NCBI GenBank assembly: GCA_964016885.1 | Contig: OZ024740.1 | Location: forward strand, 199,268,001 to 199,332,000 | Direction of reading: 5' to 3' | Length of the DNA stretch: 64,000 nt | DNA from: Eledone cirrhosa | Lineage: Eukaryota | In this document: in pieces, positions 197-39,839 of the stretch | Numbering within the stretch: the stretch's first letter is position 1 | Layout: the number at the start of each line of letters is the position of its first letter | The notes under the pieces: model-generated | What the model was told of the DNA's origin: nothing | What the model saw: only the letters and a program-made list of their open reading frames with translations | The model's database searches: none | Made by a program: the position numbers and the translations under genes

Positions 197-234
197 CCTT
201 TACCGGTTTCGCAGTTCTTCTGCTTTTCAAAAGT
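197..234 (-). ncRNA. Minimal type I hammerhead ribozyme, U3-A8 core variant (family A)
   Basis: Minus strand reads CTT-TTGAAAA-GCAG agaa/a CTGC-GAAA-CCGG-TA-AAG. Further copies are at 2535-2575(+, decayed stem II), 18092-18129(-) and 35463-35500(-). Confidence 0.65.
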
Positions 235-625
235 AGAGTTGAGATGGAGGGTCTGTGGTTTTCTCATATCTGGTTCGTCTCTGAATGTTACTTGTTTTAT
301 ATGGAAAAAGTGGCTCGAAATGCCAGGTTTTTTGAGAAGTAATTATAATAAATTTCGCGCCAGTTCGCGTTACAAAGTTCTTCAAACAGGAGGGGGGGGG
401 GGGGGTCACGGGTTGTTTTTTTCATATATGAGTGTTTGAATTTCTTTTTACTTAAAAAAAGGGGGTTCACGAAGGCTTTTTTTAATAAACGTAATTTGAT
501 TGGTTAATAAATGAAATTATGGCTATCACGTAAACAAGTTTTCATTAAATTTTCGCACCCTTATTTGGAAATCCATTCTGTAGCCTTTTTAGAGAATTTT
601 ATGACAACTAAAACAAAACCCAAGA

Positions 626-1141
626 ATGAAAAAAGCCCTTGAAACACAACATATTCAAAAGCAAAAGACAACAGAAATCACTGAAACCATTACACACCAA
701 TGCCAAATTACATACCACAAACCCACAACCAAAAATGTCAAAAAATGTGGTCGCTCTAATTGTGGAACCTGCACTCACATCATTGAAGGCAACACGTATA
801 CATTTAAATCAGGACAACATTTTACTGTAAAAAATCACTTCACTTGCTCATCAAAAAATCTACTTTATGCTATTAAATGTAAAGGATGCAATGAAGATTA
901 TATAGGACAAACTAAACTCACACTCAGAAACAGAATGACAGTTCATCGCCAACAATTACGAGATCCAACCACGAGACAGATACCACTAAGCGCACATCTA
1001 GACATATGCGCAAGTAATAAGATACCCAAATTCCAAGTCTTCCCATTTTATCTTTGCGCTAACAATATAACAGAACAAATACGAATAAATAAAGAAAATA
1101 TGTTTATTCAAAAATATAGACCAGCATTTAATATGGTTTAA
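626..1141 (+). pseudogene. PLE C-terminal Cys-rich linker plus GIY-YIG endonuclease fragment
   Basis: CGRSNCGTC...FTCSSKNLLYAIKCKGCNEDYIGQT...RNRMTVHRQ...LSAHLDIC; clearly homologous to the C-terminus of the 5563-7455 ORF. Confidence 0.9.
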
Positions 1142-2716
1142 TATACATTTTGTCAACACCATAACATGCTAACCATCCAAACAGACACATACACACATAA
1201 CACCTTCTACTTTAGAAAATAAAAACCCGAACTAAATAAACCTTAACATACGTTTGCACTGACAATACAACAGAACAAATACGTATAAGTAAGGAAAATA
1301 TGTTCATTCAAAAATATTCCTACTAAAGGAATCATTTCCCTACACACACACACACACACACACACACAATATAAATATATATATATATATATATATTCTC
1401 TTCATCTTAACATGCTAACCATACTCCCACACACATATCACCCATACACACACATAACAACACCCACACCCACACACACATCTCCCTCCCCCATTTCTAC
1501 TAATATAATCACTTTCCTACACACATATATACACACACACAAAATATATATTCTCTCCATCTTAACATACTCCCACATACACACACATAACACCCATATA
1601 CACACACACACAACTCGCTCCCCCATTTCTACTAATAGAATCATCTTCCAATACACACACCCACACACACACACAAGCACACACATAAACATACACATCT
1701 TTACTTTCTTTACTTCAATAGAAAATCTGAATTCTGACACCCCAGCGAACCATCCATATTCACTGAACCAGAACAATTCTCCCATCCCATTTCTCTTGAC
1801 CATTATCTTTTGCTTGTAAAAAAATTCTGTAAAAAGGGTACAGAATAGATTTCCAGATAAGGGCGCGAACATTTAATGAAAACTTGTTCACGTGACAGAC
1901 ATAATTTCATTTATAGCCAATCAAATTACGTCTATTAAAAAAAAGCCTTCGTGAGCCCCTTTTTTTAAGTATAAAGAAATTCACACACACACACACACAC
2001 ACACACACACACACAACCACAAAATAAACATACATATCTTTACTTTCTTTATTCAATAGAAAATCTGAATTCTGACACCCCAGCGAACTAACCATATTCA
2101 CTGAACCAGAACAATTGTCTCATCCAATTTCTCTTGACCATTAACTTTTACTTGTCATAAAATTCTCTAGAAAGGCTACAGATAGATTTCCAAATAAGGG
2201 CGCGAAAATCTTTTGAGAACTTGTTTATGTGACAGCATAATTTCATTTATAACCAATCAAATTACGTTTATTTAGAAAAAGCCATCGTGAGCCCCCCTTT
2301 TTAAGTAAAAAGAAATTCAAACTCTCATATATGAAAAAACAAGCTGTGACAACCCCTCGCCCTTGTTTGAAGAACTATGTAACGCGAACTGGCGCGAAAT
2401 TTATTTTAATTATTGACCATCAATCAAATTCCTTCTCGAAAAACCTGGCATTTCGAGCCACTTTTTCCATATAAAACAAGTAACATTCAGAGACGAACCA
2501 GATGTGAAAAAACCACAGACCCTCCATCTCAACTCTACTTTTGAAAAGCATAAAACTCCGAAACCGGTAAAGGAAGCAAATCAATATTTTTTTTTTTTTA
2601 AATAAGACGCCAGTTGCATTTTCGATTTCATCTTTTTCCCTCTCTCTCTCTCTCTCTCTCTCTCTCTCTCTATATATATATATATATATATATATATATA
2701 TATATATATATATATA

Positions 2717-3280
2717 TCGTTTCTTGTCTGTACATACAAGTAACATCTTATTCAACTGAACAATCATATAGATACATATATATTGATGTTGTGAACAACA
2801 GTTTTGTATTTACAGGGTGTAATGGATGCGACATATATTATACGAGAATTGTACAATAATTCAAATTGTATTCCACTCTGCTTTTAATTTTAATTTTATT
2901 TATTGTACAATTCTCGTATATTAATCATTGTATAATTCTCGTATATCGCATCCATTACACCCTGTAAATACGAAACTGTTGTTCACAACATCAATATATA
3001 TGTACTTATATGATTGTTCAGTTGAATAGGATGTTAATTATATGTACAAATATTGCTAATGCTCCGATGAATCCAAACGAAAGTTTGGAAGAAACGATTG
3101 TCAGCAATAAAATGATTTGAACATAACTTTGATAATTGTGTAATTTATATTCATGCTCTGTAAAACACTTGATGTTCTTACATTGAGCTATTTCTCTTAC
3201 TGGTAATAAGGTAGTAATAAATTACTGACCTTTCCTGTTTATAGTTGTTTATAGTATATACATAAAGAGTATCATTATTA
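2717..3280 (+). mobile_element. Fold-back non-coding pLTR-like element with HHR
   Basis: Inverted arms ~2735-2860 and ~2900-3048, then an HHR-like motif. A 3' fragment of the same family is at ~50643-50800. (TA)n on both sides. Confidence 0.6.
3057..3108 (+). ncRNA. Type I hammerhead-like motif (CCGAUGA core)
   Basis: TGCT-CCGATGA-a-TCCAAAC gaaa GTTTGGA-a-GAAA-CGATTG-TC-AGCA; position U4 is mutated to C. Confidence 0.6.
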
Positions 3281-3310
3281 TTATATATATATGTGTATAT
3301 ATATATATAT

Positions 3311-37614: not shown

Positions 37615-38010
37615 GTACATCAGGTGTAGTTTTGGCGTATTTCGGGAAGCATGAGTGTCTTAAAGGATGCAGTGTCTCGGCAGCTAACAACTGACGCAGG
37701 CAGTTTGTTCCATGCTTCAGCAACTCTGAGCGTGAAAAAATGTCTACGAAAGTCATGGGAGCTGTGCTGTTTTCTGATTTTGTAGGCATGTCCACGTGTG
37801 TTAGACACATGGAGATCAAAAAAATGCTCAGGGCTGCAATTGGCGAGATGGTTAATAACTTTGTGGGTATTCACCAAGTCCATTGCCAGACGTCGGAGCT
37901 TTAATGAATCCATGCCCAGGGAAGGAAGGCGTTCAGAGTATGGTAGGTGTCTGATGGAGGGTATGCGCTTGGTTACACGTCTCTGAATAGTTTCCAGGAG
38001 GTCAATGTGC
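37615..38010 (-). mobile_element. CR1-clade LINE 3' fragment
   Basis: LETIQRRVTKRIP...YSERL..LGMDSLKLRRLAMDL...TRGHAYKI...RRHFFTLRVAEAWNKLP. The 3' tail is duplicated at ~37335-37455 and ~37470-37585. Confidence 0.88.
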
Positions 38011-38409
38011 CAGTGTGTTAGATTGCCTAGGAAATAATTCAGAAGGGGATTGAAACAGAAGGAACAAAGGTGAAATAAAAGAGATTACTTCGCAAAATTG
38101 TTCAGTATAACCATCCATTATGAAGGGGGGTTCATGGGGGGGGGGGTCTTAGGAGTAAACTGTGGTTTCCTTCTATGTGTCTGTTATTATTATTTTATTA
38201 TTTCTATTTTAAATATAACAGATACTAGGAAGGGAATTTTGGATTTCTCCGAAGCCGCCACCCTTGGGCATCCTTGATGTTATGATTAATCAGAAAAATT
38301 AATCCCTCTCCCTCCCTATCTCTCTCTCTCTCTCTCTCTCTCTCTCTCTCTCTCTCTCTCTCTCTCTCTCTCTCTCTCTCTCTCTCGATATATATATATA
38401 TATATATAT

Positions 38410-38815
38410 ATACAAATAAATAATGAAATCTCGACCCACGAAATAACGAAATAACGAAATAACGAAATAACGAAATAACGAAACACAATCTTCGAAATGT
38501 ATGGCAAAGGGCTCAATAGTTTGAATAAACCAGAGCTATAACTATCGTTTAAATACCAACGCATAGAGACAATGCTTAAAATCTCTCTCTCTCTCTCTCT
38601 CTCTCTCTCTATATATATATATATATATATATATATATATATATATATATATATATATATATATATACAAATAAATAATCGAGAATCGGAATCTCGGCCC
38701 ACGAAATAACGAAACACAATCTTCGAAATGTATGGCAAAGGGCTCAATAATTTGGATAAACCAGAGCTATAACTATCGTTTAAATACCAACACATAGAGA
38801 CAATGCTTAAAATCA
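38410..38815 (+). repeat. Direct duplication of (TC)n(TA)n + ~160-bp unit with ACGAAATA micro-repeats; possibly a Helitron-type 5' end
   Basis: 38410-38583 and 38665-38813 are near-identical. Confidence 0.6.
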
Positions 38816-39743
38816 TTCGCACAGCCGAAAAAATGACCAGGAAAATTCGGGTCACACAAATAATAAATTAATAAATTAATAAATTAAATGAATGTAAAAT
38901 CTTACCCGGACCCGCTGGAAGGATGTTAAATTCTAGCTTTATGGATTTCTGTATTTCCTTAATCAATTACCGTCAGCCCACATAAAAAATATATCTGACT
39001 TCTGGTAAAGGGACGAACGAGGAAACTACTTTCTCAGCAGGCATTTCGTTCAAAAATACAGAGACACCCGACTCGTTACTAAACGCACATGGAGTCCAGC
39101 AAGGGAGGGAACCCTATATTAGGCGAATGAATTCAGTAATGTGTATATATTTTGTAAAAATACAAAATATCACATATCGAATTAGAGTTCTCAAGAGACG
39201 TGTTAAAATTAACAAGAGCTATTCATCAGTTAATAAGATAAACTAAAAAATCAATAAAATTAACTGGTCAAAATTAACCCCTCACTTGTTGACCCGTCAC
39301 CGTAAGATACTCGGTTTATTACTTATACCTCTTAAAGGGGTCTCATTATAATTCCGTCCCACCTAGTATATATTTTTGTAGCCTAGCAGTACCAGTGAGA
39401 GACTTAGGTCGTAGTAACCAGAAATTGTTTATTTTTTTTTTTTTTACATTTAATTGCTTTTTAACACTCTCAGTATTTTTCTATATATTTACCCTTTATT
39501 GTTCTACTTACTGTTTCGACTTCCTCTCCCTCCTCCTCCCTAGTATCTTCTTTGACCTCATGCCCAGCTGTAGTCGGCACTATCAACGCATGAATGGGTC
39601 TCCTCCACCCCCTCTCCCTCTTTCTCCTACTGGCAGGTTTAGCTACCCCTTCCCTCCACAAATTGCCATCATAGAATTATTATGTCTCAACAACAAACTT
39701 TTGACCAATCCCTGTGACAATCACTTTGACCATATATGGAATT

Positions 39744-39839
39744 ACCCCTTGAGAAGCTCGGCTATTCAAATACCAGGATAAAAATGTTCATTTAGTCCAG
39801 AATTAGCCATCGAAATGGGTTGAGCTCAGCCGTCGGGGT
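39744..39839 (+). ncRNA. Type I hammerhead, U3-A8 core variant (family E)
   Basis: ACCCC-TTGAGAA-gctcGGCTA...TAGCCatc-GAAA-TGGGT tgagctc AGCCG-TC-GGGGT. Confidence 0.7.

Follow-up and report, generated by a model that had tools for sequence, protein, structure and literature searches.

Penelope-like element lineages of Eledone cirrhosa that multiplied with hammerhead ribozyme cores predicted to be crippled

The stretch of the Eledone cirrhosa genome analyzed here (GenBank assembly GCA_964016885.1, contig OZ024740.1, positions 199,268,001 to 199,332,000 of the forward strand; 64,000 nucleotides, called the window below) is dense in Penelope-like elements (PLEs), and the host genome, at 3.0 Gb, is rich in microsatellites. 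Seven type I hammerhead ribozyme motifs with a UUGANAA core, in which U3 pairs with A8, lie at the 3' ends of Penelope-like retrotransposons of three families, which we call A, B and E. When these families were tallied genome-wide, two lineages turned out to have multiplied with cores that are predicted to be crippled: family B, where U3-A8 is accompanied by a change at A13, and a lineage spanning family E and its relative E3, where C3 stands opposite A8. That both multiplied makes it likely that cleavage is not essential. We lean, with modest confidence, toward the reading that the element needs its folded RNA and that self-cleavage is helpful but dispensable. The U3-A8 swap is already known; what may be new is the amplified A13C family and the lineage that likely lost and regained the 3-8 pair.

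An amplified A13C family

A first-pass annotation of the window had singled out core positions 3 and 8 and asked whether they vary independently among genomic copies. The tally that bears on this question turned up a further fixed core change in family B, beside U3-A8, that the annotation had not reported. In both window copies of B, GCAA replaces GAAA (A13C), and genome-wide C13 is found in 10,074 of 10,199 B matches (98.8%), so that the run G12-A13-A14-A15, which A and E have, is missing from B. All genome tallies given here are of exact-pattern matches, and their unit is a motif match, not an insertion. At positions 3 and 8, the first 100 of the 10,199 matches listed have U3 in every case and A8 in 99. 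C13 is derived in B, because family A and the sister family B2 have A13. We looked for a subfamily of B with A13 and found none; by hand count, the first 100 of the 125 non-C13 matches consist of 53 T, 30 A and 17 G. The B copies are young, with 1.2% change at position 13 and some open reading frames (ORFs) open over 636-655 codons, and the ORF in the window gives profile matches to PF00078 (below cut-off) and PF01541.

A13 is a member of the strictly conserved hammerhead core, and from classical mutagenesis A13C is expected to cripple hammerhead cleavage. Family B reached about 10,000 copies with a core that we predict to be crippled.

The sister family B2 (L367-L386) has U3-A8 and A13; its stem II is closed by a U-U pair, its stem I has about one pair, and the motif looks eroded.

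Probable loss and return of the 3-8 pair in family E

In family E motifs, stem I has five pairs, the long stem II is closed by G10.1-C11.1, and stem III is a hairpin of six pairs. The genome holds 1,647 matches, with C3-A8 in 970, U3-A8 in 661 and a base other than A8 in 16 (among them seven U3-G8 and two C3-G8), so the question of independent variation received a partial answer: in family E position 3 varies and position 8 does not. A second C3/G7/A8 subfamily, in E3, has 277 matches, bringing the exact C3/G7/A8 matches with a mismatched 3-8 pair to 1,247. A Watson-Crick 3-8 pair is lacking in this C3/G7 lineage of E and E3, and is present in A, B, the U3 subfamilies of E, the sister family E2 and most of E3.

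C3-A8 is the state of the source elements. Position 3 is identical within all 41 loci that hold two or three E copies (these loci were picked from pattern lists, many as pairs), and in contigs assembled from reads T39749C stands at 39-44% of the depth in three runs of one sample and at 7% in a small fourth run, the four runs being contigs of one study, possibly of the source sample, that are silent on expression and cleavage. A reverse transcriptase (RT) and a GIY-YIG-like C-terminus could be read from the E loci, and 1,344 homologs were found.

The order of events comes from two trees. In the ORF tree (42 loci, with the hammerhead left out), the subfamilies form a ladder of E2, E3 with U3/A7, E3 with U3/C7, C3/G7 in E3 (support 100/99), C3/G7 in E (100/99), U3/G7 (98/97) and U3/U7. 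Placing the 13 C3/G7 rows together on one side of a branch was rejected by the approximately unbiased (AU) test (p-AU 1.9e-113; 39 rows, after three duplicates were dropped). In the tree of the 3' untranslated region (UTR; 41 loci), U3 copies are nested inside C3 copies, and at least 0.17 changes per site lie between the two C3 subfamilies. A single C3/A7 copy, L364, falls apart from the other C3 copies and is read as a private change. Based on these trees, a broken 3-8 pair was likely carried through a long period of spread in the E lineage and then mended; the trunk of the lineage would have passed from U3-A8 to C3-A8 and back to U3-A8, with the stems and the protein under continued selection.

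We also considered the C3-A8 copies as the youngest E subfamily, an idea that is contradicted by ORF divergence (1.95% vs 1.7% and 1.6%) and by both trees.

Along the ladder there are 38 differences between subfamily majorities, which were drawn from 3 to 41 copies each: 36 fall in the 78 loop, flank and N7 columns, none in the 41 stem and core columns, and two at position 3. The C3 phase accounts for 14 of the 36, and its lack of changes in the 41 stem and core columns has a p of about 0.003. ORF changes on the C3 branch number nine synonymous vs three non-synonymous, from which it follows that the lineage was autonomous. Covariation in stem II of E and E2 points the same way as to the fold, with three pairs changed on both sides and 89% of cells paired vs 24-45% when slid, in an alignment of 29 rows where one (L257) is wrongly oriented and related rows inflate the shuffle control.

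One could imagine that the C3-A8 RNAs do not have to cleave themselves, and that in dimers they are processed in trans by co-expressed U3-A8 relatives sharing stems I and III. Stem I, nearly all of stem III and its palindromic loop are common to all E and E3 subfamilies, and E dimers fold stably (folding energies do not separate active from inactive cores). However, C3 and U3 are never mixed in the 41 multi-copy loci, stem I of B cannot pair with that of A, and the scheme would require co-expression in the germ line. We regard such complementation as very improbable.

Several observations on E stand apart from this argument. In the window copy, the 3' strand of stem II can pair with the 5' strand of stem III around GAAA (39805-39820), forming a competing hairpin of similar energy that hides GAAA and is a possible switch. 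In many copies of E and E2, truncation or inversion inside stem II has left only the 3' half of the hammerhead (window 36688-36929 and 54813-55020; L221-L250), and the read contigs become more than ten times deeper 3' of stem II; reverse transcription may stall there. Seven near-identical E copies with U at G5 (L043-L050, L102, L108) have long shared flanks on C20 and C27 and are segmental duplications of one decayed copy.

Dispensable cleavage or tolerant cores

Under the favored reading, U3-A8 would retain a working 3-8 pair, and C3-A8 and C13 would likely lose most activity. Weak selection for the 3-8 pair would explain both its long retention and its return, and loss of the pair would not stop copying. 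Any cleavage by A and B would take place in dimers joined by their CCGG palindrome; E can form stem III alone and possibly acts as a monomer, with the competing hairpin. In the one element for which the need was tested in vitro, a PLE protein inserted unaffected by hammerhead mutants (PMC11167929), and the need of PLEs for their hammerhead has been stated as an open question (PMC8557442).

A number of points weigh against this reading. We infer the crippling by A13C and C3-A8 in these sequence contexts. The Anolis hammerhead cleaved only with its protein (PMC11167929), and weak-looking cores may be rescued in vivo in this way. In one deep mutational scan, no replacement but G3-C8 rescued the pair (PMC9901934); U3-A8 itself may therefore be slow in certain contexts. 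None of the nine remaining core bases changed in the C3 phase, which fits a still-active core and is not significant alone (about 1.3-2.5 changes would be expected). C3 and G7 arose on one branch, which permits an alternative pairing register. A return to U3 by chance has an estimated probability of about 0.1 at the observed loop or UTR rates; this suggests selection and is not significant alone. As to the trees, the 3' UTR tree has no U3 outgroup, seven U3 rows and two discordant copies (L138, L156), the root of the ORF tree is set by a single distant copy of E2 and a few of E3, and both assume zero recombination between subfamilies.

Some of these points raise the alternative that the variant cores still cleave and that cleavage was required throughout, C3-A8 working through a protonated C-A wobble, through G7 in place of G8 or with the help of the element protein, and A13C being tolerated in a protein-bound dimer. 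The 32 stem columns, like the nine other core columns, are unchanged in the C3 phase, C3 and G7 share their branch, and N7 moves again only after the return of U3. In the G7 register the core would do without N7 and an extra A would stand before stem II; an unpaired base after A9 is common in such motifs (PMC4209133), and protein-assisted cleavage has been reported (PMC11167929). On the other hand, a natural CUGANAA motif was reported inactive (PMC8490949), the deep scan recorded low activity for single changes in the CUGA region (PMC9901934), core conservation alone is not significant, and both B, with a three-pair A-U stem I, and B2, with about one stem I pair and its U-U closing pair, have the look of erosion. 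We consider this alternative unlikely, though far from negligible. There is a similarly limited chance that C3/G7/A8 and U3-A8/C13 are two unreported natural cores that cleave in the element ribonucleoprotein, by the G7 register shift or with protein help, and that in the E lineage the whole route by which a tertiary base pair was lost and came back is preserved and could be resurrected.

These alternatives differ in what they would teach. Should the broken cores prove dead, cleavage would be dispensable in vivo and the fold would serve some other purpose; should they prove to work, both the rules for the hammerhead core and the search descriptors would be incomplete. The genome supplies natural alleles with genomic read-outs: a young, ORF-intact A13C family with about 10,000 matches, and a graded set of seven subfamilies within a common frame (U3/A7, U3/C7, C3/G7 twice, U3/G7 twice, U3/U7) in which stem III forms without a partner.

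Retention of U3-A8 between families and its origins

Family A has the U3-A8 pair in 10,353 of its 10,448 genome matches; 58 are non-U3, all with A8, and 37 are non-A8, all with U3. With zero double changes among the 10,448 matches, the earlier argument that a double change fixed across copies implies selection does not hold, as sameness within a family is inheritance from its source element. Uniformity inside A or B reflects common descent and so is no proof of selection.

Selection on U3-A8 is seen between families only, where comparison of the motifs supports it: the pair persists across diverged sister families while N7 and the loops change. In E2, 84 of 93 full cores have U3-A8 with U7 and six have U3-G8 (hand count). 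In E3, N7 can be A, C, U or G, and A8 is found in 98 of the first 100 listed among 1,204 matches. In B2, with about 71% protein identity to B, the motif was found at 12 of 20 loci, and every one of the 12 carries U3-A8 together with A13.

This retention bears on a further explanation, that catalysis does not matter in any of these families. The structure would then be kept only for protein binding, for priming or as a DNA element, and U3-A8 would be a relic of drift. Insertion in vitro is independent of cleavage (PMC11167929), Naiad elements thrive without canonical hammerheads (PMC8557442), and the B and B2 motifs look eroded. Against it, single-stranded core bases are fixed across families whose proteins are 35-70% alike, with N7 free; at the family level, pairing of positions 3 and 8 holds throughout the families examined, the C3/G7 lineage excepted; and the same compensated pair likely originated twice. 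We find it improbable, and continue to favor a fold that is needed together with a cleavage that helps.

U3-A8 had been proposed as a possible signature of the Neptune lineage. This does not fit two separate origins, one in the Neptune-type families A and B and one in the Hydra-type family E, nor the Neptune-type family N3, which retains C3-G8 (14 of 15 loci); the Hydra-type families C, D and H are also C3-G8. When 14 protein pieces are placed in a tree, the A8 families require two changes, and a single A8 clade is rejected (p-AU 0.0002, with four rows under half filled). U3-A8 likely arose twice here.

The Neptune marks are a CX4CxxC linker between RT and the endonuclease (EN) in A and B, and DKG, seen in B only. 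The Hydra marks of E are DKT, a CxCX5C linker, CxxC and CxH, and insertion at (TA)n; RWK matches in E, searched for as the N-terminal motif, fall outside the ORF frame. The labels are motif-based, without reference trees, and since a CX2-5CxxC linker also occurs in Nematis (PMC8557442), A and B could be Nematis. Named homologs of E come from a sea cucumber, a coral and an argonaut, at about 41-42%. In a Hydra-type family 52% identical to E (L164:9704-9198, L176), no hammerhead was found within 2.2 kb and 1.2 kb downstream, respectively.

Among the E2 motifs, the U3-G8 cores (e.g. L273, L275, L279, L256) include some that share loop letters, and a small wobble-pair subfamily may exist. On the plus strand of L084, about 720 bases after an EN fragment, a U3-G8 motif with a CG palindrome lies behind a distant PLE fragment.

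Hammerhead motifs in the window

Stem I and stem II flank the TTGANAA heptamer at all seven places where the first-pass annotation had claimed it, in families A, B and E (Table 1). The position that the annotation gave for the E motif is that of the heptamer itself, and its positions for the A and B motifs are those of the motif start on the plus strand. In sense with the RT/GIY-YIG ORFs, the motifs lie 1.0-1.4 kb downstream of them and have the type I layout, with a weak stem I in B. In A and B, stem III is a CCGG palindrome and the cleavage site is UA. As in PLEs, there are inverted, 5'-truncated copies and partial tandems, with the hammerhead near the 3' end; the first A motif of the window belongs to the inverted 5' copy of an element at 15-2717. 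The E motif of the window has three private stem changes, at 39809, 39816 and 39819.

Table 1. Hammerhead motifs and associated features in the window
Feature	Positions	Strand	Remarks
A hammerhead, type I	197..236	-	U3-A8 core 230-224; CCGG palindromic stem III; predicted cut between 201/200
A ORF fragment	605..1141	+	CX4CxxC linker and GIY-YIG domain (PF01541)
A hammerhead	2535..2574	+	In sense, downstream of ORF; U3-A8 core 2541-2547; damaged stem II
B hammerhead	4554..4594	-	U3-A8 core 4588-4582; A13C at 4566; stem I of three A-U pairs only
B ORF	5563..7473	-	636 open codons; RT, CX4CxxC linker, GIY-YIG; Neptune-type
A hammerhead	18092..18131	-	U3-A8 core 18125-18119
A hammerhead	35463..35502	-	U3-A8 core 35496-35490
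C core CTGATAA	35747..35753	+	Private G8A in a C3-G8 family; flank of this copy misfits the pattern, family fits
E element 3' end	39278..39935	+	5'-truncated, Hydra-type; followed by (TA)n
E hammerhead, subfamily U1	39744..39839	+	Stem I 39744-39748 with 39835-39839; U3-A8 core 39749-39755; predicted cut after 39834
C core CTGATAA	40725..40731	-	Private G8A; sole C3-A8 among the first 100 of 1,160 C matches listed
G core TTGACGA	47215..47221	+	Private C3U in a C3-G8 tandem-repeat family
B hammerhead	60438..60476	-	U3-A8 core 60470-60464; A13C at 60449

A strict hammerhead descriptor gave 11 matches in the window vs 0.6 per dinucleotide shuffle (20 shuffles). It recovered three of the four A copies and none of the B and E copies. 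The Rfam hammerhead models at gathering score had no match in the window, the canonical C3-G8 copies included; since those are missed as well, invisibility to Rfam is not caused by U3-A8. On 40 evenly spaced 10-kb stretches of the genome, a relaxed descriptor gave 49 matches vs 26 per shuffle, many of them in one simple repeat, which is too noisy to tally; one A and three B motifs were among them.

Comparison with known hammerheads

The view that U3-A8 is a compensatory change with precedent is borne out: it was described as a natural covariation, active in vitro, by Perreault et al. in 2011 (PMC3088659), and in PLEs in 2014, with about 1,300 matches in Schistosoma mansoni (Cervera and De la Pena, PMC4209133). 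The swap in Perreault et al. is the same as ours, but the variants listed there include neither A13C nor an amplified C3-A8, and repeats with a mutated core were set aside there as cryptic mutants (PMC3088659). Like the hammerheads of the Cercyon PLEs of S. mansoni, ours are type I motifs in a terminal repeat with U3-A8, minimal palindromic stem III (in A and B) and many truncated single copies; unlike those, A and B lack an extra base after A9, and stem III of E has six pairs (PMC4209133). In the part of Fig. S3 of that paper that we examined, no representative motif has C3-A8 or GCAA, and the descriptor used there required GAAA.

Family E resembles the Hydra clade of PLEs with a C-terminal EN (EN+; Craig et al. 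2021, PMC8557442) in its DKT, CxCX5C, CxxC and CxH motifs, (TA)n targets and hammerhead. The hammerheads of that clade are called canonical (PMC8557442), whereas the E branch, placed by motifs and not by a tree, has U3-A8 and C3-A8. Poseidon of Anolis likewise has a PLE hammerhead, and its insertion in vitro does not require cleavage; its core is C3-G8 and its mutants were engineered (PMC11167929), whereas the core changes reported here are natural and genome-amplified.

In the literature searched we found no report of hammerhead A13C, nor of G8A/C3U pair variants; key papers that may already treat A13C or C3-A8, including Lunse et al.'s survey of small hammerheads in PLEs, lay outside the search, and absence from print is not established. 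The accessible parts of PMC11014351, PMC6765202, PMC6155905 and bioRxiv 10.64898/2026.07.22.740005 hold nothing on these variants.

Single core changes and other elements

Three single changes in the window, at 35747, 40731 and 47215, had been taken for decay after insertion, and we agree: the parent families are predominantly C3-G8, with 92 of the first 100 listed among 1,160 matches in family C and 96 of the first 100 listed among 7,745 matches in family G.

Family G (window 46673-48008) has a C3-G8 hammerhead whose palindrome is CUAG, set in tandem repeats that measure about 422 bp, with 7,745 matches and no ORF linked, and looks like a retrozyme of the non-LTR kind (LTR, long terminal repeat). 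Families A, B and E, all attached to RT/EN ORFs, do not show the short non-coding tandem repeats without an ORF that mark non-LTR retrozymes; family G fits the tandem pattern.

Canonical C3-G8 type I hammerheads of families C, D and F lie at 9777 (-), 9945 (+), 16776 (+), 53271 (+), 18474 (-), 46113 (+) and 56732 (+), those of C and D behind Hydra-type ORFs. Among the other features of the window, a fragment of a PIF1-like helicase (PF05970, E 8.7e-14) at 11471-12007 (-) is possibly derived from a Helitron, and ORF pieces with zf-RVT matches at 27520-28779 (-) and 58313-59053 (-) are likely remnants of long interspersed nuclear elements (LINEs).

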